Assembly: GCA_964468195.1 (NCBI GenBank)
Contig: CAYXUI010000030.1
Coordinates: 1-23,467, forward strand
DNA from: an uncultured Oscillospiraceae bacterium
GTDB lineage: Bacteria > Bacillota > Clostridia > Oscillospirales > Oscillospiraceae
Direction: 5' to 3'
Length of the DNA: 23,467 bases
Positions 1,097-22,210 of this stretch are shown here, one piece after another. The first letter of the stretch is position 1, and each line of letters begins with the position of its first letter. The notes under the pieces were generated by a model. The model was not told where the DNA came from. It saw only the letters and a program-made list of their open reading frames with translations, and did not search any database. A program made the position numbers and the translations under genes.

Positions 1097-1252
1097 GTAG
1101 GGCGGGGGCATGCCCCCGCCGCTTTGCTATCCATTTATACGCGCTCATTTGGTTGATACTGCCATACCAATCGTTGATTTCTACCCTTTGCCATTCAACC
1201 AGCCATGCAAATATCGTTACCTGTCCGGCGGAGGCATGCCTCCGCCCTACGA
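1097..1252. repeat. R1 REPIN-like doublet, copy A: two inverted GTAGGG+palindrome units flanking an AT-rich spacer
   Basis: Left unit is GTAGGGCGGGGGCATGCCCCCGCCGC (1097-1122). Right unit is GTCCGGCGGAGGCATGCCTCCGCCCTACGA (1223-1252), the inverted complement of the left unit. The same architecture recurs at 13790, 15922 and 17423. Confidence 0.9.
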
Positions 1253-2329: not shown

Positions 2330-3237
2330 CCCCCGTTGGGCGGTTTGCCCCAACCCCTTCCGGCCGGATGCATCTGGGCAATGTGTTTTCTGCACTGCTT
2401 GCCTGGCTCTCTGTGAAAAGCAGAGGCGGAGAAATGGTGCTGCGGATGGAGGATCTGGACACCCAGCGTACCAGCGCCGAATTTGCCCAAATCCTCCGGG
2501 AGGACCTGAACTGGCTGGGACTGACTTATGACCGGGAAACAGAACCCCAGTCTCAACGGAGCCGGGTGTATGATAAATACTTTTCCCGAATCCAGGAGAT
2601 GGGGTTGATCTATCCCTGTTACTGCACCCGCAGCCAGCTCCACAGTGTCAACGCTCCCCACCTTTCCGATGGTACCTATGTCTATCCCGGCACCTGCCGA
2701 AACCTGAAGCAAGAAGATATTCCTGCAAACCGGTTGCCTGCCTGGCGGGTCATGGTCCCGGACAAAATCTTGACCGTGGAAGATAAGGTTCAGGGTCACT
2801 ATACATTGAATCTGGCCACCGGCTGCGGGGACATGGTTCTGCGCCGGGCCGACGGGGTCTATGTCTATCAGCTGGCGGTAACGGTGGATGACGGCGAAGC
2901 CGGTGTGACGGAGGTTGTTCGTGGCATGGATCTTCTCAGCTCTGCCCCCCGGCAGATGTATTTGCAGGAACTGCTGGGTTTCCCCCATCCGGAATATGCC
3001 CATGTTCCCATGCTGCTGGCCCCCGATGGCCGCCGCTTAAGCAAACGGGATCAGGATCTGGATCTTGGACAATTGCGGCTCCATGTGACCCGGGAGCAGC
3101 TGCTGGGAAGCTTAGCCTTCTCCGCTGGGATCCTCGATCAAAAGAAAGCCATTTCTCCACAGGAACTGGCGAAAGAATTCTCCTGGGAGAAGGTGCATGG
3201 TGACAGCATTTATTTGAATGCGGAGGATTTGCTGTAA
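2317..3237 (+). CDS. gluQ: Glutamyl-Q tRNA(Asp) synthetase (truncated GluRS paralog, no anticodon-binding domain)
   Basis: GRFAPTPSGRMHLGN (HIGH-type motif), LRMEDLD, Zn-site pattern CYCTR...YVYPGTC, YQLAVTVDD, and RLSKRD (KMSKS equivalent). About 306 aa, as expected for GluQRS. The ORF opens at TTG 2305; I prefer ATG 2317, preceded by GGTGGA 4 nt upstream. Confidence 0.85.
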   Translation: MAGVTPVGRFAPTPSGRMHLGNVFSALLAWLSVKSRGGEMVLRMEDLDTQRTSAEFAQILREDLNWLGLTYDRETEPQSQRSRVYDKYFSRIQEMGLIYPCYCTRSQLHSVNAPHLSDGTYVYPGTCRNLKQEDIPANRLPAWRVMVPDKILTVEDKVQGHYTLNLATGCGDMVLRRADGVYVYQLAVTVDDGEAGVTEVVRGMDLLSSAPRQMYLQELLGFPHPEYAHVPMLLAPDGRRLSKRDQDLDLGQLRLHVTREQLLGSLAFSAGILDQKKAISPQELAKEFSWEKVHGDSIYLNAEDLL

Positions 3238-3250
3238 CTTGAATATCTTG

Positions 3251-3374
3251 GCTCCCCCATAGGGGGAGCTGACCGAAATCTATGATTTCGGTCTGAGAGG
3301 GAGCTCATTCGTTACGCCCCATATCCGTCACCGGCTTGCAGCGGTGACACCTTCCCAGAGGAGAAGGTGTTTTT
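3251..3374 (+). repeat. R3 GC-rich multi-hairpin intergenic repeat, copy 1
   Basis: Consecutive hairpins: GCTCCCCC-ATA-GGGGGAGC (3251-3269), GACCGAAAT-CTATG-ATTTCGGTC (3271-3293), GTCACCG...CGGTGAC (3327-3348), CACCTTC...GAAGGTG (3348-3369). The hairpin order and the GTCACCG/CGGTGAC module are shared with copies at 10290 and 21967. Confidence 0.7.
3348..3374 (+). terminator. Probable gluQ intrinsic terminator (last hairpin of the R3 repeat)
   Basis: 7-bp stem CACCTTC/GAAGGTG, 8-nt loop, then TTTTT at 3370-3374. Confidence 0.55.
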
Positions 3375-3394
3375 GACATCTCCCCTGTCTTTTC

Positions 3395-3559
3395 CGTGGA
3401 TAACTTGTGTTATTCACAGGACAGAACTGTACTTTTCCACAATTTCCACAGGTTTTTCCACAGCACTTGGCAATTTCTCTGTTGAAACATCGGGGAATTT
3501 GTCCCATCTGTCCACTTTTTCCACAGATGTGTGCACAACTGTGGAAAAAGTTATGCACA
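3395..3559. promoter_or_regulatory. oriC-distal DnaA-box cluster (8 boxes with 7-8 of 9 matches to TTATCCACA in 165 bp)
   Basis: cgtggataa 3395-3403 (minus strand, 8/9); ttattcaca 3410-3418 (8/9); ttttccaca 3433-3441 (8/9); atttccaca 3442-3450 (7/9); ttttccaca 3454-3462 (8/9); ttttccaca 3517-3525 (8/9); tgtggaaaa 3540-3548 (minus strand, 8/9); ttatgcaca 3551-3559 (8/9). The TTTTCCACA variant is also the commonest box in the dnaA-dnaN spacer. Confidence 0.7.
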
Positions 3560-5464: not shown

Positions 5465-6793
5465 TTACTTCGTAATGACTTCCAGGCCGCCCAGATACTT
5501 TCTCAGCACTTCGGGCACCACCACAGAGCCGTCAGCACGCTGGTTCTGCTCCACGATGGCGGGGAAAATACGGGAAGTTGCCAGACCGGAGCCGTTCAGA
5601 GTGTGCACATAGTCGATCTTGCCATCGGCACGGCGGTAACGGATATTGCCACGGCGGGCCTGATAATCCCGGGCATTGGACACGGAGGAAACTTCCTTAT
5701 AGCCGTTCATGGAGGGAATCAGGATCTCGATATCATAGGTTCTGGCCATGGAAGCGGAGCAGTCACCGGCAGCCAGCTTCACGGTGCGGAAGTGCAGACC
5801 CAGACCGGCAACCAGATTCTCGGCCTTCTTCACCAGTTCTTCGAAAGCCTCATCGGAACCCTCGGGGGTGGTGTACTGGAACATTTCCACCTTGTTGAAC
5901 TGGTGGCCACGAACCATACCACGCTCGTCGGCACGGTGGGAACCGGCTTCCCGCCGGAAGCAGGGGGTGTAAGCGAAGAACTTCTTGGGCAGGTCCTTCT
6001 CCGTCAGAATTTCGTCACGGTAAACGGAAGCCAGAGCGGCTTCAGCAGTGGGCAGCATGTAGAAGGTTGAGCCTTCCGTGGGATGGTTGGCGATCTTAAA
6101 GACCTCGTCAGCGAACTTTGGGAACTGACCGGCGGTTTCGCCGCAGGCATACTCCAGCATGTGGGGGGGCAGGATGAAATCGTAGCCGTCAGCGGTATGG
6201 GTATCAATAAAGTAATTCAGCAGTGCCCACTCCAGTCTTGCACCCATGCCGGTGTACATCCAGTTACCGCCGCCGGCCAGCTTGACGCCACGCTCGTAGT
6301 CGATGAGATCCAGATCCTGGCACAGATCCACATGGTGCTTGGGCTCGAAATCAAAGGAATGCTTCTCGCCGATGTAGCGCAGAGGCTCATTATTTTCCTT
6401 GCCACCGGGGAGCAGGTCAGGATCCGGCAGATTGGGCAGGCTCAGCATAGCAACCCGGTACTCTGCAGACAGTTCTTTCAGCTTTGCAGTGTCGGCCTCG
6501 TTAGCGGCATCCAGTGCAATGGCCTGGGCCTTGTTTTCTTCGATTTTGGCATCCACTTCTGCGGTGGATTCGCCCTTCTTTTCCAGGCCCTTCTTCATGC
6601 CAAAGAGCTTGCCGTTTTCCTTTGCCAGCTTGTTCTTCTGAGCGGTACGGCCTTCGGAGGTGGTCTTCAGGCTGCGGATCTCCACGTCCAGTTCCAGAAT
6701 GCGGTCAACGGTAGCATCGCAGTCTACTTCCTTGGCTTTCAGACCGGCCTTGACAGCATCGGGATTTTCTTTGATTTTACGAATGTCTAACAT
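5465..6793 (-). CDS. serS: Seryl-tRNA synthetase
   Basis: 442 aa. N-terminal coiled-coil arm begins MLDIRKIKENPDAVKAGLKAK. Class II core motifs include FRREAGS, GHQFNKVEMF and TLNGSGLATSR. AGGAGAGG RBS upstream. Confidence 0.96.
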   Translation of the reverse strand: MLDIRKIKENPDAVKAGLKAKEVDCDATVDRILELDVEIRSLKTTSEGRTAQKNKLAKENGKLFGMKKGLEKKGESTAEVDAKIEENKAQAIALDAANEADTAKLKELSAEYRVAMLSLPNLPDPDLLPGGKENNEPLRYIGEKHSFDFEPKHHVDLCQDLDLIDYERGVKLAGGGNWMYTGMGARLEWALLNYFIDTHTADGYDFILPPHMLEYACGETAGQFPKFADEVFKIANHPTEGSTFYMLPTAEAALASVYRDEILTEKDLPKKFFAYTPCFRREAGSHRADERGMVRGHQFNKVEMFQYTTPEGSDEAFEELVKKAENLVAGLGLHFRTVKLAAGDCSASMARTYDIEILIPSMNGYKEVSSVSNARDYQARRGNIRYRRADGKIDYVHTLNGSGLATSRIFPAIVEQNQRADGSVVVPEVLRKYLGGLEVITK

Positions 6794-6842
6794 GGTAACT
6801 TACCTCTCCTTATGGTTTTGTCCCGGTTTTTCGGGGCAAATG

Positions 6843-8599: not shown

Positions 8600-8615
8600 T
8601 GTTTCACGTGAAACA
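8600..8615. promoter_or_regulatory. parS site 1 (perfect 16-bp palindrome TGTTTCACGTGAAACA)
   Basis: Exact match to the Firmicute parS consensus TGTTNCACGTGAAACA, 27 nt upstream of the parA start. Confidence 0.9.
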
Positions 8616-8638: not shown

Positions 8639-8654
8639 TGTTTCACGTGAAACA
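8639..8654. promoter_or_regulatory. parS site 2 (perfect 16-bp palindrome TGTTTCACGTGAAACA)
   Basis: A second exact copy, 39 bp centre-to-centre from site 1. On the + strand both sites are preceded by a TTCTATG-type flank. Confidence 0.9.
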
Positions 8655-10711: not shown

Positions 10712-10822
10712 TGTCATCTTGAGCGAGCGAAGCGAGTCGAAAGATCTACGCACTAAATTGACTGCATATATCACAAAAGTGCGTAGATCCCTCCACTCGC
10801 TTACGCTCGGTCGGGATGGCAA
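10712..10822. repeat. R4 long imperfect hairpin repeat, copy 1
   Basis: Left arm TGTCATCTTGAGCGAGCGAAGCGAGTCGAAAGATCTACGCAC. The right arm reverse-complements to TTGCCATCCCGACCGAGCGTAAGCGAGTGGAGGGATCTACGCAC. The loop is about 25 nt. Arms match those of the copy at 18986-19098. Confidence 0.8.
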
Positions 10823-11262: not shown

Positions 11263-13760
11263 GCCTGCTCATTCTCCTCGATATTTTCCACCCGCTCCAG
11301 AGAGACCACCTGATTGCCCTCTTCGATGCGCATGACGATGACGCCCTGCACATCCCGCTTGTAAATGTTGATGGAAGATGCGGGGATGCGGATGATGACG
11401 CCGCCGTTTTCAATGACCATCACATCGTCATTTTCTGCCACGGCGCAGCAACCGGCCACCTTGCCGGTCTTGGTGGTGATGTTGTAGTTCTTCAAACCCT
11501 TACCACCACGGCTCTGGGGTACCTTGGTGCCGTCGGGGCCGGTGCGGAGGTATTCGCTGAGCTCGGTACGCTTACCGTAACCGTTGACGGTAACGGTGAG
11601 CAGGGTCTTCCCTTCTTCGGCCTTCTCGGCACCCACCACGAAATCGTCACCGGTGAGCTGGATGCCCCGGACACCGGCAGCATCACGACCCATGCACCGC
11701 ACGTCATTTTCGTTGAAGCAGATGGCCATACCGTTGGCAGTAGCCAGAACGATATTGTCATTGCCATTGGTGCGGATGACGTTGACCAGATGATCTCCCT
11801 CTTCCAGGGTAATGGCCCGGATACCGGCCTTCCGGTTGGTTTTCAGAGAGATAAAGGGCAGACGCTTCACAGTACCCTTCTCCGTTACCATCATCAGGAA
11901 TTCTTCATCGTCAAACTCCCGGGTAATGACCATGGCAGTGACATTTTCGCCGGGTTCCAGGGGCAGGACGTTAACAATGGCAGTGCCTCTTGCAGTGCGT
12001 CCGGCTTCGGGGATCTGGTAGCCCTTCCGGTGATGGACACGGCCAAGGTCGGTGAAGAACAGCATATGATCGTGGGTAGAAGCGATATTCAGGGACTTGA
12101 CATAGTCCTCGTCCTTCAGATTCTGAGCGCTGACACCACGTCCACCACGGCTCTGGGTCCGGTAGGTATCCACGGGCATCCGCTTGATGTAGCCCTGATT
12201 GGACAGAGTGAAGGCGCAGGTCTCCTCTTCAATCAGGTCTTCAATGTCCAGCTCGTCCTCGATTTCCTGAATTTCGGTCTTCCGATCGTCGCCGAACTTG
12301 TCCCGGATGGCGATGAGCTCTTCCCGGAGGAGCGCCTTCATCTTTTCGGGGTCGGCCAGCAGTTCCAGATAGTAGTTGATCCGCTCCATGAGTTCATCGT
12401 ACTCATTTTGCAGCTTTTCCCGATCCAGACCCTGCAAAGCTTTCAGCCGCATGTCCAGAATGGCCTGAGCCTGGACATCATCCAGATTGAACCGTTCCAT
12501 CAGTTTCTGCTTGGCATCGTCATAGGCAGAGCGGATGATGTGAATGACTTCGTCAATGTTATCCTGAGCGATCAGCAGACCTTCCAGCAAATGGGCACGC
12601 TCTCTGGCCTTTTTCAGGTCATACTGGGTGCGCCGGGTCAGAATTTCATTCTGGTGAGCCAGATATTCGTCCAGAATCTGCCGCAGAGACAGAATTTTTG
12701 GCTGCTTCTGGTCGTCCACCAGTGCCAGCATGATAATGCCGAAGCTACTCTGCAAAGCAGTCTGCTTGAAGAGGTTATTCAGCACCACCTGGGGATTGGC
12801 ATCCTTTTTCAGTTCGATGACCATCCGCATACCGTTGCGGTCAGTTTCGTCTCTCAGGTCGGAAATGCCGTCCAAACGCTTGTCCTTCACCTGCTCGGCG
12901 ATGTTCTTGATGAGCTGACGCTTGTTGACCTGATAGGGCAGTTCGGTGACGATGATCCGGGTGCGATCCTTGCCAAATTCCTCAAATTCCGTTCTGGCAC
13001 GGACCACCACCTTGCCACGGCCGGTGGCATAAGCCGCCCGAATGCCGCTTCTGCCCATGATGATACCGCCGGTGGGGAAATCCGGGCCGGAGATATGCTC
13101 CATCAGATCGGACAGCCCGCATTCCGGGTCATCCAGCACGCAGACGCAGGCATTGATGACCTCCACCAGATTGTGGGGCGGAATGTTGGTAGCCATACCA
13201 ACGGCGATACCGGAAGAACCGTTCACCAGCAAATTGGGGAACCGGGAAGGCAGAACCCGGGGTTCTTTCCGGCTCTCGTCAAAGTTGGGATCCCAGTTGA
13301 CGGTGTCCTTGTCGATGTCCCGGAGCATTTCGTTGGAAAGCTTGGAAAGTCTGGCCTCGGTGTAACGGTAAGCAGCCGGGGGGTCACCATCCACGGAACC
13401 AAAGTTACCGTGGCCATCCACCAGCATATAGCGCATGGAGAAATTCTGGGCCAGACGCACCATGGCATCGTAAACGGAAGCATCACCATGGGGGTGATAC
13501 TTACCCAGCACGTCACCGACACAGGTGGCCGATTTCTTAAAGGGTTTGTCGGAAGTCAGGCCGCTTTCGTACATGGTGTACAGGATTCGGCGATGGACAG
13601 GCTTCAAGCCGTCCCGAACATCCGGCAGCGCCCGCCCGACAATAACGGACATGGCGTATTCAATGTAGGATTTCTCCATCTCATCCACCAGGTTGCTCTC
13701 GGTAATTACCTGGTCGGGAAAGAGAATATCCTCCGGTTTATAACTGCGGTTATGTGCCAT
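11259..13760 (-). CDS. gyrA: DNA gyrase subunit A
   Basis: [38 protein letters not shown], the AYRYTE active-site Tyr motif, and a C-terminal beta-pinwheel repeat region. The ORF opens at 13784, but ATG 13758-13760 has a GGAGGTG RBS 4 nt upstream ([10 protein letters not shown]...). Confidence 0.97.
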
Positions 13761-13789
13761 AAAGCACCTCCAATAATATATCAACGCAA

Positions 13790-13923
13790 TCGTAGGGCGG
13801 GGGCATGCCCCCGCCGCTCTGTTTCCAAAACAAAGCGGTTTCGATTATTTGGAACGCACTGCAAATAAAAAAGAATGAAATAATTTGGTACCCGGTCGAC
13901 GGGGGCATGCCCCCGCCCTACGA
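13790..13923. repeat. R1 REPIN-like doublet, copy B (gyrB-gyrA spacer)
   Basis: TCGTAGGGCGGGGGCATGCCCCCGCCGC (13790-13817), an AT-rich spacer, then GGTCGACGGGGGCATGCCCCCGCCCTACGA (13894-13923). Confidence 0.92.
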
Positions 13924-13931
13924 TACAAAAA

Positions 13932-15857
13932 TCAGATGTCAATATTCACCGCATACTTGGCGTTTCGTTCGATCCATTCTTTTCTGGGTTCTACCTGTTC
14001 GCCCATGAGGACGGTGAAAATGGCATCGGCACGGCGAGCATCTTCCAAAGTGATCCGGCGGAGGGTACGCTTTTCGGGATCCATGGTGGTCTCCCACAGT
14101 TCGTGGGGGTCCATTTCGCCCAGACCCTTGAACCGGCTGATGTCCACCTTGGCGCCGCTTTCGCCACGCATTTCGGCAGAAACCTGATCTCTTTCTTCGT
14201 CAGAGTAGGCAACCCGCTCCTGCTTGCCCTTTTTCAGCTTGTAAAGGGGCGGCACGGCGGAATAGACGTAGCCATTTTCGATCAGGGGCCGCATATAGCG
14301 GAAGAAGAAGGTCAGAAGCAGGGTGCGGATATGCGCACCGTCCACGTCCGCATCGGACATGATGATGACTTTGTGATAGCGGAGTTTCTCGATATCAAAT
14401 TCGTCTCCGATGCCGGCGCCCAGTGCCACGATCAGGGGGTAGAGCTTATCGTTTCCGTAGATCTTGTCGGCTCTGGCCTTCTCCACGTTGAGCATTTTAC
14501 CCCACATGGCGAGGATTGCCTGGAACCGGGAGTCACGACCCTGAATGGCGGAGCCCGCAGCGGAGTCACCCTCGACGATGTAAATTTCGCACAGGGAAGC
14601 GTCCCGCTCGTTGCAGTCCTGAAGCTTATCGGGCATCTGGCCGGATTCCAGTCCCGTCTTCCGACGAATGGATTCTCTTGCCTTCCGGGCAGCTTCTCTG
14701 GCCCGGTTTGCCATCATGGCCTTTTCCAGAATGGCCTTGGCGGTGGCAGGATGCTCTTCAAAGTATTCCGTCAGCTGCTCGTTAACGATCTGGTCAACCA
14801 AAGTACGGATGTAGGCGTTGCCCAATTTTGCCTTGGTCTGGCCTTCAAACTGGGCATCTGTCAGCTTAACGGAGATAATGGCGGTAATACCTTCCCGGCA
14901 GTCTTCGCCGGAAACTTTGTCGTCGCCTTTGATGATGCCGTTTTTCACGCCGTAGGCATTGAGCACACGGGTCAGGGCGGTCTTGAAGCCCGTCTCGTGC
15001 ATACCGCCTTCCGGTGTGCGGACATCGTTGGCAAAGCTCAGCATAAATTCGTTGTAGCCGTCGTTATACTGGATAGCCACTTCCGCGGAAGCGTCCCCCT
15101 TGGTGCCGTGCATGTAGACGATGTCCTCATGGAGGGCCGTCTTGTTCCGGTTGCACCACACAGCAAATTCCCGGATACCGCCTTCATAGCACATGGTCTC
15201 GGAAATGGGTTCTTCTCCCCGGGCATCGGTAATGGTGATGGAAAGACCTGCATTCAGGAAAGCTTCCTCCCGCATACGCTCGTGGAGCACTTCATAGTCA
15301 TACACCAGAGTGTCAAACATCTCCGGATCGGGCTGGAAGGTGACTTCCGTACCGTTCTTTTCGGTGTTGCCCACCACACGCATTTCCTGGGTGATGTGAC
15401 CCCGGGCGAATTTCATTTCGTGGATCTTGCCGTTCTTATGGACCCGAACGGTGAGCCACTCGGACAGGGCGTTGACGACGGATGCGCCCACGCCATGGAG
15501 GCCGCCGGAGACCTTATAGCCGCCGCCGCCGAATTTACCACCGGCATGCAACACGGTTAAAACCACTTCCAGCGCAGGCTTGCCGGTCTGGGGCTGGATA
15601 TCCACGGGGATACCACGACCATCGTCCACCACAGTGATGGAATCGCCGGGGTTGATGGTCACGGTGATGTGCTTACAGAAGCCCGCCAGAGCTTCGTCAA
15701 TGGAATTGTCCACGATCTCGTAAACCAGATGGTGCAGACCACTGGACGAGGTGGAACCGATATACATACCGGGTCTCTTCCGGACGGCTTCCAGACCCTC
15801 CAAAACCTGGATCTGAGAACCGCCGTATTCCTGTGTTACTTTCGTTTCTTCAGACAT
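13932..15857 (-). CDS. gyrB: DNA gyrase subunit B
   Basis: 641 aa: VLEGLEAVRKRPGMYIG, LHHLVYEIVDNSIDEA, GGLHGVGASVVNA, the Toprim region EIYIVEGDSAGGSA, and MSDADVDGAHI. GGAGG lies 7 nt upstream. Confidence 0.98.
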   Translation of the reverse strand: MSEETKVTQEYGGSQIQVLEGLEAVRKRPGMYIGSTSSSGLHHLVYEIVDNSIDEALAGFCKHITVTINPGDSITVVDDGRGIPVDIQPQTGKPALEVVLTVLHAGGKFGGGGYKVSGGLHGVGASVVNALSEWLTVRVHKNGKIHEMKFARGHITQEMRVVGNTEKNGTEVTFQPDPEMFDTLVYDYEVLHERMREEAFLNAGLSITITDARGEEPISETMCYEGGIREFAVWCNRNKTALHEDIVYMHGTKGDASAEVAIQYNDGYNEFMLSFANDVRTPEGGMHETGFKTALTRVLNAYGVKNGIIKGDDKVSGEDCREGITAIISVKLTDAQFEGQTKAKLGNAYIRTLVDQIVNEQLTEYFEEHPATAKAILEKAMMANRAREAARKARESIRRKTGLESGQMPDKLQDCNERDASLCEIYIVEGDSAAGSAIQGRDSRFQAILAMWGKMLNVEKARADKIYGNDKLYPLIVALGAGIGDEFDIEKLRYHKVIIMSDADVDGAHIRTLLLTFFFRYMRPLIENGYVYSAVPPLYKLKKGKQERVAYSDEERDQVSAEMRGESGAKVDISRFKGLGEMDPHELWETTMDPEKRTLRRITLEDARRADAIFTVLMGEQVEPRKEWIERNAKYAVNIDI

Positions 15858-15921
15858 TCATTGTCCTCCTATCGTTACCAAACCGCATGATGTTGTGACG
15901 CTGTAAATAATTCACGCGGGT

Positions 15922-16033
15922 TCGTAGGGCGGGGGCATGCCCCCGCCGCCCCACGTCCGGAATAAATGTTTTTCCAAAAACCGGACGGCAAAAATGGATA
16001 CCTGGTCGGCGGAGTCATGACTCCGCCCTACGA
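15922..16033. repeat. R1 REPIN-like doublet, copy C (recF-gyrB spacer; overlaps the recF 3' end)
   Basis: TCGTAGGGCGGGGGCATGCCCCCGCCGC (15922-15949), a spacer, then GGTCGGCGGAGTCATGACTCCGCCCTACGA (16004-16033). The right-hand palindrome has two compensated changes. Confidence 0.92.
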
Positions 16034-17127
16034 ATATTTCCTTTGATTACTTCAATATTCTTCCCCAGTTTGGTAAATCTGCCGCTTTCGCAGCAGGTGA
16101 TGAATACCTGGCCGGAGATGATCTGGTTCAGCACAAAATCCTGCCTTCCCGGATCCAGTTCGGAGAGCACGTCATCCAATAGCAGTACCGGCTGCTCTCC
16201 CCATTCCCGGCCCATGAGTTCCCGCTGGGCCAGTTTCAAACTGATGGCAGCAGTGCGGGTCTGCCCCTGGGAACCATAGGCTTTCAGGTCGATTCCGTTC
16301 AAGGCCACGGTGAAATCATCTTTCTGGGGGCCTGTCAGGCATTGAGCCGTTTCCAGCTCCGCACGGTAATGCCGCTGCAAATGCTCCTGCAAGTCTTCCG
16401 TCAATTTCGCCACCGGGGCAAAGGGATTGGAAACCGTGGAGACGGTCTTATATTCCAGAGAAAAATTCTCCACACCTCCGGAAAACTGCCTGTGGAAATC
16501 TTCTGCGCTTTTCCCCAGAGCATCGAAAAACCGGGCTCGGTAGGAGATCAGCAGCGCACCCACCTGACAAAGCCTGGTGTTGTATTCCGGCAGAATGTCC
16601 AGCACGGCGGGATTTTCAAAGTGGTCTTTCAAAATCCGGCTTTTTTGCTCCAAAATCCGGTGGTACTCCCCCAGAGCCGCTTCGTAATTGGGCCGCAGAC
16701 CGCAAAGGGCCGTATCGGCGAACCGCCGCCGCTGGGCACCGCCCATTTTCAGGATCAGTAAGTCCTCCGGGCAAAACAGCACCGTAGGCAATACCCCTGC
16801 CAGTTCCGAAGCGCTTTTCTTTCTGGCACCGTTGCGGAAGATCTGCCGGGGCCGGGCACCGGAAAACAGGAGATAGCGCAGCGTCTGCTGCCGCTCCTGA
16901 GAGAAAACCGTACCCTGAATTTCTCCGAAATCTGCCCCAAAGGACACCATTTCTGCCGTTTTCTGAGCCCGGAAACTTTTTCCGCTGCCAAGATAAGCGA
17001 TGGCTTCCAGCAGATTGGTCTTTCCCTGGGCATTGTCCCCCACGATGAGATTCACCCCGGGGTCAAATTCCACCTCTGCCTCGGTATAATTCCGGAAGGT
17101 GCGCAGCGTCAGTTTTTCCAGATTCAT
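16015..17127 (-). CDS. recF: DNA replication and repair protein RecF
   Basis: 370 aa: FRNY, Walker A GDNAQGKTNLLEAI, the signature region, and Walker B LLLDDVLSELD. The start overlaps the yaaA stop (ATGA). The last 6 codons and the stop lie inside R1 copy C. Confidence 0.95.
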   Translation of the reverse strand: MNLEKLTLRTFRNYTEAEVEFDPGVNLIVGDNAQGKTNLLEAIAYLGSGKSFRAQKTAEMVSFGADFGEIQGTVFSQERQQTLRYLLFSGARPRQIFRNGARKKSASELAGVLPTVLFCPEDLLILKMGGAQRRRFADTALCGLRPNYEAALGEYHRILEQKSRILKDHFENPAVLDILPEYNTRLCQVGALLISYRARFFDALGKSAEDFHRQFSGGVENFSLEYKTVSTVSNPFAPVAKLTEDLQEHLQRHYRAELETAQCLTGPQKDDFTVALNGIDLKAYGSQGQTRTAAISLKLAQRELMGREWGEQPVLLLDDVLSELDPGRQDFVLNQIISGQVFITCCESGRFTKLGKNIEVIKGNIRRAES

Positions 17128-17369
17128 GCGTGGTTGGAGATCAGGTAGGTCTGATCCTGGAAAGAGAAAGTGTCCCCATTATAGAGCTTCTTGCCCCGCA
17201 TGGTACAGACTTCCCCATTCACCAGAACCTCTCCTTCCTGGATCAGGCTCTTGGCCTCACCGCCGGAATAGACAATGTTGGCATATTTCATAGCATCCTG
17301 GAGCTTAATAAACTCCGTGGAAATGGACACCGGAATGGCGGTGTCTTTCTTTTTTACGGTTACTTTCAT
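17124..17369 (-). CDS. yaaA: S4-domain RNA-binding protein YaaA
   Basis: 81 aa: IKLQDAMKYANIVYSGGEAKSLIQEGEVLVNGEVCTMRGKKLYNGD. It occupies the conserved position between dnaN and recF. GAGGTGA RBS upstream. Confidence 0.88.
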   Translation of the reverse strand: MKVTVKKKDTAIPVSISTEFIKLQDAMKYANIVYSGGEAKSLIQEGEVLVNGEVCTMRGKKLYNGDTFSFQDQTYLISNHA

Positions 17370-17422
17370 AATTTTTCACCTCAAAAAATGGTATCAATCA
17401 GGCGGAAACATATTCGTTGCAT

Positions 17423-17586
17423 TCGTAGGGCGGGGGCATGCTCCCGCCGCTCAGGCAGCGATGATTGCATAGGTATTTATTAAAATGCTGTGTCCCCACA
17501 TCTGAGATACCGTCGTAACATACTTCATTCAACGAACCAATTAAAAATCTATAGCGGGTCGGCGGGGGCATGCCCCCGCCCTACGA
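17423..17586. repeat. R1 REPIN-like doublet, copy D (dnaN-yaaA spacer)
   Basis: TCGTAGGGCGGGGGCATGCTCCCGCCGC (17423-17450), a 106-nt AT-rich spacer, then GGTCGGCGGGGGCATGCCCCCGCCCTACGA (17557-17586). Confidence 0.92.
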
Positions 17587-17588
17587 TG

Positions 17589-18698
17589 TTAGCCGTTCTT
17601 AATTCTCACCGGCAGCACCATATAAGCAAAATCAAACTTATCATCCACTGGGGTCAGGACGATGGGGCTTAAGCCGTTGGTCAGTTCCATGGTCACCTCT
17701 TCGGAGGGGATGACTTTCAAGGCATCGGCAAGATACCGGACATTGAAGCCGATCTCCAGTTCCTTGCCGTCACCGGCGATGGAACATTTATCCTCTGCGG
17801 CACCGATGGTGGTATTGGTGCGCATCAAAAGCTCATTGTGGCTGAACACGCAGCGCACGGGGCTCTTGTATTTTTCGGAAACGATCAGACCCACACGCTC
17901 CACGGAAGAGGAAAGATCGGAAACATGGGCCACCAGCTGAATGGGGCAGTTGGTGGGAACGACTTTCCGCCAATCCAGGAATTCGCCGTCCAACAGCCGG
18001 CAGACCAACGTTGCGTTGCCGATCTGATACAAAATGTGCTTGGGGCCAAGGGTGAAAGAAGCATCGTCTTCGGAATCGGTAACGATTTTTTCCACTTCTT
18101 TCAGTCCCTGAGCGGGAACCACAAAGGAAAGCTCCCGCTCGGTGCTCTCCTGGGGGTGGTAAGTCCGGCGGGCCAAACGGAAACCGTCCACGGCAATGGC
18201 GGTGATGGAATCGTTGGTGACCTCGAACTTCACGCCGGTGTGGATGGGACGGCCCTGATTTTCGGACACGGCAAAAATGGTGCCGGAGATCAGTTCCTTC
18301 AGCTTGTTCTGGGGGATCTTGATGGGACGGCCGGAGTTGACATCCGGAAGGTCGGGGTAATCCTCGGCACTTTCGGCGGAAATGGTGAAGGAAGCATAGC
18401 CTGCCCGGATGGAGACTTTGAAATCCTCGCTGACCACCACCGTCACCGGGCCTTCCGGCAGACGGCGGACAATGTCGCCAAAGAGCTTGGCCGGGAGAAT
18501 GCACTCACCGGGGTCCGAGACTTCTGCGGGAATGTCATAGGTAATGGCCGTTTCCATATTGTAGCCGGTGAGGGAAATGCCGTGACCGGCCTTGCAGAAG
18601 ATACCCTCGATGACGGAAAGGCTGCTCTTCTGCGCTACTGTCCGTCCGGCAATATTCAGACCCTGAACCAGCATGTTTTTTTCACAGGTAAAACGCAT
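17589..18698 (-). CDS. dnaN: DNA polymerase III beta sliding clamp
   Basis: Full-length clamp (MRFTCEKNMLVQGLNIAGRTV..., ending PVRI). The ORF opens at 18704 (MTM...), but the AGGA RBS spacing and homology to MKFT-type N-termini favour ATG 18696-18698. Confidence 0.95.
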   Translation of the reverse strand: MRFTCEKNMLVQGLNIAGRTVAQKSSLSVIEGIFCKAGHGISLTGYNMETAITYDIPAEVSDPGECILPAKLFGDIVRRLPEGPVTVVVSEDFKVSIRAGYASFTISAESAEDYPDLPDVNSGRPIKIPQNKLKELISGTIFAVSENQGRPIHTGVKFEVTNDSITAIAVDGFRLARRTYHPQESTERELSFVVPAQGLKEVEKIVTDSEDDASFTLGPKHILYQIGNATLVCRLLDGEFLDWRKVVPTNCPIQLVAHVSDLSSSVERVGLIVSEKYKSPVRCVFSHNELLMRTNTTIGAAEDKCSIAGDGKELEIGFNVRYLADALKVIPSEEVTMELTNGLSPIVLTPVDDKFDFAYMVLPVRIKNG

Positions 18699-18704
18699 GG
18701 TCAT

Positions 18705-18960
18705 TTTCCTTTCTTGAATAAAATAAGAAAGATAGATATATCTATCATAGGTTAAGGCAGTCGTAACAGTATTAGTACAAATTTATGTGGAAAAGTCCCT
18801 TTTGCCTTAGAGCCGCAACGGAAATTTCTCCACAACCCGGTGTGAAAAAATAAGAAGTTTTCCACAGCCAATTTTTCCGGCTGTGGGGAAATTTTTTCTG
18901 AGCGAGTTTTCCACACAATTTCTTTCCACAATCCACAGGGACTGTGGATAAATTTTTGCG
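18705..18960. promoter_or_regulatory. oriC (dnaA-dnaN spacer): AT-rich unwinding-element candidate plus a DnaA-box array
   Basis: 18705-18785 is AT-rich and contains the perfect 16-bp palindrome GATAGATATATCTATC (18731-18746). DnaA boxes: tgtggaaaa 18786-18794; ttctccaca 18826-18834; ttttccaca 18858-18866; tgtggggaa 18882-18890; ttttccaca 18907-18915; ctttccaca 18922-18930; caatccaca 18929-18937; tgtggataa 18943-18951 (9/9). Gene orientation switches at dnaA. Confidence 0.8.
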
Positions 18961-18985: not shown

Positions 18986-19098
18986 TGTCATCCCGACCAA
19001 GCGTAGCGCGTGGAGGGATCTACGCACCGAATGTCACTTATGCAGTACGATAGTGCCAAGATTCCTCGAATCCGCTTGCGCTCCGCTCGGAATGACAA
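18986..19098. repeat. R4 long imperfect hairpin repeat, copy 2 (inside the origin spacer, next to the dnaA stop)
   Basis: Left arm TTGTCATCCCGACCAAGCGTAGCGCGTGGAGGGATCTACGCAC. The right arm reverse-complements to TTGTCATTCCGAGCGGAGCGCAAGCGGATTCGAGGAATCTTGGCAC. Confidence 0.8.
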
Positions 19099-19105
19099 CG
19101 TATTC

Positions 19106-20542: not shown

Positions 20543-20573
20543 AAAAAGGAACAGGCAAGGCCTGTTCCTTTTT
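20543..20573. terminator. Orphan terminator-like hairpin between the dnaA leader and a repeat block
   Basis: AGGAACAGGC (20547-20556) pairs with GCCTGTTCCT (20560-20569). A5 precedes and T5 follows. No CDS ends next to it on either strand. Confidence 0.5.
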
Positions 20574-20589
20574 ACGAGACTGATACCCT

Positions 20590-20817
20590 GGCGGTAATCG
20601 TTACACCATTGGGTGGGTAGCCCGGTAACGAATCCGGGTGAAAATTGTGACTGTAAGGGCGATCATTGGTCGCCCGCCCGATAACTGACCAGATACCAGC
20701 GGGCGGCCAATAGCCGCCCCTACGAAATTGTTGTGACATTTCCCAAAAAACTCATCACTCCTAACTTCTACTATGTCCCGAACCGGGCGGGCCCAATGGT
20801 GTAACGATTACCACCGG
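20590..20817. repeat. Composite inverted-repeat element with an R2 doublet nested inside
   Basis: An identical 21-bp core GGTAATCGTTACACCATTGGG at 20593-20613 is inverted at 20792-20812. Flanks extend the similarity to about 37 bp. Each arm abuts a CCCGG...CCGGG-type hairpin. Confidence 0.75.
20652..20725. repeat. R2 REPIN-like doublet (GTARGGGCG-RYYATTGGY-CGCCCGC units)
   Basis: TGTAAGGGCGATCATTGGTCGCCCGCC (left) and GCGGGCGGCCAATAGCCGCCCCTACGA (right) are mutually inverted around a 20-nt spacer. The GTAG-like head plus GC palindrome layout matches R1. Confidence 0.75.
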
Positions 20818-20906
20818 CCTATCCCACTCGAAATAGTCTTTGGCCACTGTCCACTTCTCTCTACATTCCGCTCAAAAAACCTCCCGGAAATTGGTGACTT
20901 TTTGGC

Positions 20907-21929: not shown

Positions 21930-21966
21930 CAGTTGACAGTTAAGTAGTGCAAAGGGCTGCGCAATC

Positions 21967-22125
21967 CCTTCCCCCGGGGGGAAGGTGCCCCGAAGGGGCG
22001 GAAGAGGAACGGCGAAACTTTAAAGTTTGCAGAAAGTCTGTTACAACGCAATAATCGTAACATTTTTGCCCGCATTCCTCTTCAGTCACCGCCTTTGGCG
22101 GTGCCAGCTTCCCCCCGGGGGAAGC
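21967..22125 (+). repeat. R3 GC-rich multi-hairpin intergenic repeat, copy 3
   Basis: CCTTCCCCC/GGGGGAAGG (21967-21985); GCCCC-GAA-GGGGC (21987-21999); long-range stem GAAGAGGAA (22001-22009) with TTCCTCTTC (22075-22083) enclosing a 65-nt AT-rich insert; CACCGCC-TTT-GGCGGTG (22087-22103); GCTTCCCCC/GGGGGAAGC (22107-22125). Confidence 0.75.
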
Positions 22126-22210
22126 GATATGCGGCCCATGGCCGCCAAACCAATTTCGTAAGCAAATACAATTACTATATAAAAATCTAACAATCAGGAG
22201 GAACTAAAAA

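Follow-up and report, generated by a model that had tools for sequence, protein, structure and literature searches.

Head-out doublets of GTAG-type REPs, probably mobilised by RAYT transposases, form a dispersed repeat family in Oscillospiraceae

Four intergenic elements in a 23,467-nt contig of an uncultured Oscillospiraceae bacterium (GenBank assembly GCA_964468195.1, contig CAYXUI010000030.1; analysed at its full length and termed the window below) are very probably repetitive extragenic palindromic sequences (REPs) of the GTAG type. They are set as head-out doublets, the layout of HH dimers and of REPINs (REP doublets forming hairpins), and belong to a dispersed, nonautonomous family of Faecousia and related Oscillospiraceae that is presumably mobilised by tyrosine transposases associated with REPs (RAYTs). 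A preliminary description of this DNA had proposed REP or REPIN sequences moved by a RAYT of the HUH type rather than DDE-type miniature inverted-repeat transposable elements (MITEs), a proposal supported by the dispersal of the family, the RAYT genes flanked by the repeat unit in related genomes, the lack of target site duplications (TSDs), and the compensated changes within units.

Four REP doublets in the window

All four repeats of the preliminary description were present at the positions it gave, each with GTAG beside a palindrome and each a head-out inverted pair (GTAG-core ... core-CTAC) of a 24-nt unit made up of GTAG and a 20-nt GC palindrome. The unit folds as a GTAG foot followed by an 8-bp GC stem and a 4-nt loop. 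The doublets are as follows.

1095 to 1252: REP doublet, units 1097-1120 (+) and 1227-1250 (-), spacer 106 nt, gap between groEL (+) and a phosphoribosyltransferase gene (-)
13790 to 13923: REP doublet, units 13792-13815 (+) and 13898-13921 (-), spacer 82 nt, gyrB-gyrA gap
15922 to 16033: REP doublet, units 15924-15947 (+) and 16008-16031 (-), spacer 60 nt, recF-gyrB gap
17423 to 17586: REP doublet, units 17425-17448 (+) and 17561-17584 (-), spacer 112 nt, gap between dnaN and an S4-domain gene

Using GTAGGGCGGGGGCATGCCCCCGCC as the query, seven of the eight window units were matched at up to three mismatches; the eighth (16008-16031) has four mismatches and was matched at that threshold. No match was obtained in 100 dinucleotide shuffles, and the chance expectation is zero. 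The right arm had been described as the exact inverted complement of the left, which is true of no doublet, as the arms differ at 2, 1, 4, and 1 positions in coordinate order. The right units at 1227-1250 (GGAGGCATGCCTCC) and 16008-16031 (GGAGTCATGACTCC) carry compensated changes, and in both the palindrome stays perfect. The right arm of the gyrB-gyrA doublet (13898-13921) has a single uncompensated change (CCGTC), and the dnaN doublet combines a unit with one stem change (17425-17448, + strand) with an exact consensus unit (17561-17584, - strand). The motif TACCYGGTC, said to precede the right arm in every copy, is exact in two (13889-13897 and 15998-16006) and partial in the other two. The window spacers, measured between the 24-nt units, are 60 to 112 nt long with a GC content of 38 to 48%, and the density of the repeat amounts to 8 units in 23.5 kb. 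Folded as RNA, the doublets have predicted minimum free energies of -62 to -78 kcal/mol (z-scores of -6 to -9), with an arm-to-arm stem of approximately 28 bp.

The unit is dispersed across Oscillospiraceae-type genomes

One genome per species was scanned, in blocks of mostly 8 kb, with a pattern of the 24-nt unit in which four stem positions were left free. The unit was found in at least 112 blocks from approximately 43 assemblies, and the motif is thus not confined to the locus described here. Among the matches listed, all assemblies but one were metagenome-assembled genomes (MAGs), mostly of animal-gut origin, with labels such as Faecousia, Oscillospiraceae, or Clostridiales, and one MAG alone carried the unit in at least 13 separate blocks. 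A genome with GTAG-type REPs usually has more than 100 of them dispersed in its extragenic space. The exception was the Serratia rubidaea chromosome (LR590463.1, block 1680001-1688000; L107 in our numbering of loci), the sole hit of the degenerate 24-mer outside Clostridia-type genomes among these matches, which could represent a gammaproteobacterial GTAG REP with no relation to the family and a chance fit to the pattern.

Counts of doublets, single units, and variants refer to the loci from the matches listed together with the window. In these, head-out doublets numbered 78, single units 84, double-foot palindromes (GTAG-core-CTAC) 13, and head-in pairs only three. On viral contigs, only six loci had the unit, and a chiefly phage-borne family was ruled out on that count. 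Gaps between convergent genes were occupied in 35% of cases, those between codirectional genes in 23%, and those between divergent genes in 17%, a modest effect based on crude open reading frame (ORF) calls. The same polarity of all copies, as had been claimed, is true of the four in the window; across loci, eight doublets had the same and seven the opposite polarity relative to flanking genes, and a strand or replication polarity was dropped as a rule for the family.

Whole doublets occur at unrelated sites and are absent from orthologous gaps

Of the 78 doublets, 53 fell into ten spacer families of 2 to 12 members, in both orientations and in several cases within one MAG. The flanks of family members were nearly always unrelated, and since the same spacer lies between unrelated flanks, whole doublets must have spread. 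The four window spacers match none of these ten families.

The closest hits to the window were relatives with 77 to 85% identity. The gaps of these and other genomes that correspond to the dnaN-gyrA spacers of the window, which might have been conserved in relatives, are empty or otherwise filled, as listed below.

L129 (81-82% identical): gyrB stop to gyrA start only about 27 nt, an empty gap
L052 (79-85% identical): gyrB-recF gap and gap between the S4 gene and dnaN without the unit; other repeats there
L014: gyrA-gyrB gap with a double-foot unit and a decayed doublet
L031: gyrA-gyrB gap with a doublet that has an unrelated 125-nt spacer

The gyrB-recF gap of the closest relative, L052 (417-562), is occupied by another inverted-repeat element (GGAGTGTGAAGTGTGGAGTT...CCATAACTTCACAC) where the window has its REP doublet.

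These gaps bear on whether the repeat could be an ancient cis-regulatory feature of the dnaN-recF-gyrB-gyrA genes that does not move, such as a gyrase-binding or supercoiling-sensing site or an attenuator. Three of the four window copies do lie in this one gene run, REP elements are also present in the gyrA-gyrB gap of L014, L031, and L138 to L140, and the bacterial interspersed mosaic elements (BIMEs) of E. coli have been reported to bind DNA gyrase. We nevertheless consider such a feature very unlikely. It is contradicted by the absence of the unit from orthologous gaps, which in relatives 79 to 85% identical are empty (L129) or hold unrelated repeats (L052 and L128), and by its presence at more than 100 unrelated loci. 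In addition, the spacers are wholly different between species, a scan of the whole window with Rfam 15 gave no match at the gathering score, and a scan of positions 13700 to 17700 for intrinsic terminators (a GC hairpin directly followed by a T-run) showed the doublets to lack canonical T-runs.

A change from doublet to single unit was seen in one pair of loci. The 135-nt doublet of L061 is orthologous to a double-foot singlet in L105, with flanks at least 90% identical, which fits a deletion between the two cores, as these are direct as well as inverted repeats.

Each unit is maintained as a hairpin, and no target site is duplicated

In all 266 units in the loci and all eight in the window, GTAG is followed immediately by an 8-bp stem that closes a 4-nt loop, the stem of the Oscillospiraceae family being GGCGGGGNCATGNCCCCGCC. 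A total of 62 distinct unit variants were identified, differing mainly by compensated stem changes. Stem position 12/17, for example, occurs as A-T, T-A, G-C, and C-G, and whole stems also occur as GGGAGGG/CCCTCCC. At each stem position, 79 to 97% of the distinct variants were paired, with several pair types per position. In the 46 doublets with unequal arms, 123 arm-to-arm differences were found versus 25 unpaired stem positions inside units; thus, constraint acts on the 8-bp hairpin of each unit and not on the identity of the two arms. Outside the stem, 215 of 266 units (81%) have pyrimidines at both positions 5' of GTAG, and 220 of 263 have a G immediately 3' of the core, often with ACCRGGT next to it.

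The absence of TSDs, as had been stated for the window sites, extended to all 78 doublets. No direct repeat of 4 nt or more was found in any of them at offsets 0 to 3, and matches of 2 to 3 nt occurred at the level of the permutation control. Together with the compensation within units, this is consistent with recognition of a single-stranded hairpin.

Elements with inverted-repeat ends around a variable AT-rich interior, which belong to spacer families dispersed to unrelated sites, could also be DDE-type MITEs, that is, internally deleted derivatives of insertion sequences (IS) with terminal inverted repeats of 27 to 35 bp that move as double-stranded DNA. That origin is contradicted by the lack of a TSD at any offset in the 78 doublets and by the compensation within each arm, as every supposed terminal repeat is itself a palindrome, kept by compensated changes while arm-to-arm identity decays. 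Single and double-foot units exist besides the doublets, and the only transposase-like genes bounded by units among the loci found were the HUH/Y1 RAYTs described below. The chance that the repeats are MITEs is accordingly judged to be slight in the extreme.

Two RAYT lineages carry or are flanked by the unit

A search for RAYT genes with adjoining units, as had been suggested, was successful in relatives of the window genome, in which RAYT-like genes are flanked by the unit or contain it. A motif screen of the loci identified a 166-amino-acid (aa) ORF in L063 matching the NCBIfam model REP_Tyr_transpos at an E value of 8e-14, below the curated cut-off. This lineage, here called RAYT-A, counts 1381 homologues under the names "transposase [Faecousia sp.]" or "[Oscillospiraceae]", and its alignment shows the HUH motif MPTHIHAI and the tyrosine motif YIDxNP. 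RAYT-A genes lie in conserved housekeeping neighbourhoods. The best match among PDB sequences was 4ER8 (E value of 4e-6), the RAYT of E. coli in complex with a REP hairpin, and 4ER8_A was also the best fold match (TM 0.60, rmsd 2.6), followed by the IS200, IS608, and ISDra2 transposases.

The unit is part of the RAYT-A gene itself. Of two conserved peptides in the alignment, VGRGLAPA corresponds to the unit GTAGGGCGGGGGCTTGCCCCCGCC read in frame, and AGASPRPT corresponds to the reverse unit in frame; among 120 homologues, 56 had each peptide and 31 had both. In L122 the gene (3001-3507) contains both units (3112-3135 and 3282-3305), with the HUH motif between them. In L114, where the units are at 2954-2977 and 3282-3305 and the gene at 3001-3501, the first unit lies 24 nt upstream of the ATG. 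In a confident structure model of RAYT-A (pLDDT 84.5), a beta-hairpin turn and the loop that follows the HUH strand accommodate the two unit-encoded peptides.

The second lineage, RAYT-B, is approximately 155 aa long with the motifs MPNH[VI]H, WQ, and YIxxNP, more closely YIxTNP, and it scored 73.4 and 79.7 bits on NF047646 (E values of 1e-20 to 1e-22). Some of its 1422 homologues bear the JGI name "REP element-mobilizing transposase RayT". Most RAYT-B genes are located between prfA-like and tsaE genes, and all of the loci examined had the unit head-out on both flanks of the gene (L030, L033, L137, which is a Faecousia MAG, L138 to L140, and L141 to L143). In L141 to L143 the flanking unit is the exact consensus 24-mer of the window. 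The inner junctions of RAYT-B in L137 (GACCAG... and ...ACCTGGTC) match those of the doublets, the motifs GACCRGGT and ACCYGGTC being common to both.

In L138 (1168-2313), as in L139 and L140, the gyrB-gyrA gap, which bears a doublet in the window, is taken up by a RAYT-B gene and the four doublets that flank it. Within every doublet of L138 to L140, the arms belong to different compensated REP subtypes (GGCAAAGG versus GGCGAGGG). Two of the L138 doublets, those from approximately 1196 and 2094, are interrupted in the left-unit loop by an insertion of about 60 nt. Whether the gyrB-gyrA doublet of the window is the scar of a RAYT gene deleted from an arrangement like that of L138 was considered, and only the arm and approximately 15 nt could be aligned (GACCGGGTACCAAATTAT versus GACCCGTACCAAATTTAT), which is no more than suggestive.

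On this evidence a RAYT presumably moves the units, and the source genome of the window would encode one. In the mechanism that we propose, the units would be recognised as single-stranded DNA hairpins by a RAYT (TnpA-REP) enzyme, an HUH/tyrosine nuclease encoded elsewhere and usually in single copy. The enzyme would cut beside the GTAG foot, for which the pyrimidine dinucleotide 5' of GTAG is the sole sequence hint, and rejoin the DNA without duplicating the target. Units or whole doublets would in this way spread into intergenic gaps, preferentially just downstream of genes. Deletion could reduce doublets to double-foot singlets, as the palindromic core is both an inverted and a direct repeat. 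Effects on mRNA stability or termination, if any, would be a by-product.

Several results weigh against this explanation. On NF047646, which has a curated cut-off of 80 bits, RAYT-B falls just below the cut-off and RAYT-A well under it, at 51.7 to 58.6 bits (E value of 1e-13 or better). A tblastn search of the window with RAYT-A and RAYT-B revealed no RAYT gene. No clean pair of occupied and empty sites was found at high flank identity, as the flanks were too diverged or the "empty" site contained another repeat, and the empty sites obtained, in L129 and L052, were coarse. Finally, the similarity among the interiors of the four window spacers was not significant, and these copies may not have spread as doublets.

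The dissimilar interiors, which contrast with arms that are more than 83% identical, could mean that the window doublets are BIME-like pairs, formed by REP units added singly side by side or by arbitrary DNA captured between them, and are not REPIN replicators. Such pairing could draw on the many single units in the family, and the differing arms in L138 to L140 resemble the Y and Z REPs of E. coli BIMEs. Against independent additions stand the nearly exclusive head-out arrangement, with so few head-in pairs, and the inner junction motifs that doublets have in common with the RAYT-B flanks of L137, and the ten spacer families have clearly spread as whole doublets. We regard BIME-like pairing of the window doublets as improbable, though as the likeliest of the alternatives, and the mechanism above, in which units or whole doublets spread, as the better account.

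Comparison with known REP-RAYT systems

In the survey by Di Nocera et al. (2013; PMC3733652), GTAG REPs have stems of 6 to 13 bp, fall into subfamilies by complementary stem changes, and form HH dimers with GTAG outside and the units 20 to 100 bp apart. The present family resembles those REPs in the terminal GTAG beside a short-looped, GC-rich stem, in the complementary changes between stems, in dimers that have GTAG outside, in a preference for gaps downstream of genes, and in an occasional overlap of coding ends. That survey, with 24 consensus families, names no Firmicutes or Clostridia species.

Subclass 2.4 of Quentin et al. [quoted passage not shown] The Oscillospiraceae family likewise combines long and double-foot REPs with in-frame copies in an enzyme gene. 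RAYT-B has motifs similar to the NH[IFV]H, WQ, and YIxNNP-like motifs of the subclass, a likeness at the level of motifs. RAYT-A, in contrast, has the motifs THIH, FQ, and YIDxNP and two units, of which the first precedes the HUH motif and the second follows it. Corneloup et al. (PMC8266576) described GTAG-guided cleavage at CT or CA beside the hairpin. Every feature found here is consistent with the published descriptions of GTAG REPs or subclass 2.4 RAYTs. Compared with the IS200/IS605 elements IS608 and ISDra2, the family has the same HUH/Y1 fold, hairpin ends with a 5' tetranucleotide guide, and lack of target duplication; unlike in those elements, the enzyme gene is not multicopy and does not travel with the repeats, there is no tnpB, and the polarity of doublets has no strand bias.

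The REPINs of Pseudomonas and E. coli are reportedly the subject of work by Bertels and Rainey. Like these (RAYT groups 2 and 3; PMC5581495), the family consists of inverted doublets that can fold into a long hairpin and is tied to a RAYT that is inherited vertically, as a single copy with conserved neighbours. Its spacers are longer (59 to 143 nt), fall into many families, and are unique in the four window copies, and constraint is on the hairpin of the unit itself, not on the long stem of the doublet.

For Clostridia, Bertels et al. mention only group 1 RAYTs, for which no associated REPs were found by Quentin et al. (PMC6006769), and no description of a REP or REPIN family in Clostridia or Oscillospiraceae was found in the searchable literature. 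Studies of REPs and RAYTs have been almost entirely of Proteobacteria, with surveys extending to Cyanobacteria and Bacteroidetes, and the present family widens the host range to abundant gut anaerobes with two RAYT lineages and a rich repeat family, leaving the understanding of what REPs are unchanged. With its many compensated stem variants, the family lends itself as a compact natural test set for hairpin choice by RAYTs. As repeats break assemblies, it may also be part of the reason why these genes and repeats are found on many short contigs.

Gene surroundings and possible effects on transcripts

The neighbouring genes carry the names they had been given, Pfam identifying groEL, phosphoribosyltransferase, gyrA, gyrB, recF, an S4-domain protein, dnaN, and dnaA. 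The gaps between them had been called unusually long, at 130 to 220 bp, and those filled by doublets measured approximately 157 to 219 nt. The left unit of the doublet at 1095-1252 adjoins the T-run of the groEL terminator hairpin (1052-1096), and its right end is 16 nt from the stop codon (1269) of the phosphoribosyltransferase gene on the - strand. Between the 13790-13923 doublet and the stop codon of gyrB (13932-13934) there are 8 nt, and between the 17423-17586 doublet and that of dnaN (17589-17591) 2 nt, both genes likewise being on the - strand. The recF reading frame enters the right REP unit (16015-16033; ...NIRRAES*), with a TGA in the loop of the unit as its stop codon. This TGA is present only in the compensated loop-proximal variant GGAGTCATGACTCC, and a consensus unit would leave the frame open. 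Extension of the recF frame into the repeat and spurious ORFs that cross doublets are pitfalls for annotation.

The three doublets inside the dnaN-recF-gyrB-gyrA run will be transcribed. In the scan of 13700 to 17700, the terminator consensus listed a single unit (13796-13815, + strand, the nontranscribed sense for these genes), and terminator and promoter sites were no more numerous than in shuffled sequences. Hairpins follow the dnaN, recF, gyrB, and phosphoribosyltransferase stop codons at a distance of 0 to 16 nt, the recF stop being itself supplied by a hairpin, and each of the three doublets in the gene run could fold there either as a stem of about 28 bp or as two hairpins. A regulatory side effect on the transcripts of replication genes is plausible by analogy with what is known of REPs in E. 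coli. The bolder proposal, that this is the first REP-RAYT system characterised in Bacillota and not merely selfish, its hairpins serving as operon-internal regulators of replication and gyrase genes, is doubtful. If it were true, the effect could come about through protection of mRNA 3' ends, ribosome stalling at termination, or gyrase binding, and the in-frame REP doublet around the HUH strand could let RAYT-A act on its own gene.

Other repeats in the window and in related genomes

A fifth, diverged REP-like doublet was seen upstream of dnaA at 20653-20723, also head-out, with the units GTAAGGGCGATCATTGGTCGCCC (+) and GTAGGGGCGGCTATTGGCCGCCC (-). Its 25-nt spacer contains GACCAGATACC, and the doublet is nested in a pair of 42-nt inverted repeats (20572-20613 and 20792-20833). 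The second unit (GTAGGGGCGGCTATTGGCCGCCC) had no copy in the 136 loci compared. Two perfect copies of the palindrome TGTTTCACGTGAAACA, which we take to match the parS consensus, are located 39 nt apart at 8600-8615 and 8639-8654, against a chance expectation of none.

Several different repeat families are present in the intergenic gaps of these genomes. A second, unrelated one (TGTCATCYYGAGCGAGCGAAGCGAGTCGAAAGATCTACGCAC with an inverted partner) occurs in the window at 10712-10812 and 18986-19100, in L014 at 5960-6800, and in L031 at 6550-6660; one of its copies lies in the 400-nt dnaA-dnaN gap beside clusters resembling DnaA boxes (TTTTCCACA and TGTGGATAA, 18780-18960). A third type, with a TTCCCCCGGGGGGAAG palindrome, is present at 21964-21987 and 22105-22128 of the window and at 2630-2660 and 2900-2930 of L128, in which the gaps flanking gyrB are filled by motifs related to this repeat.

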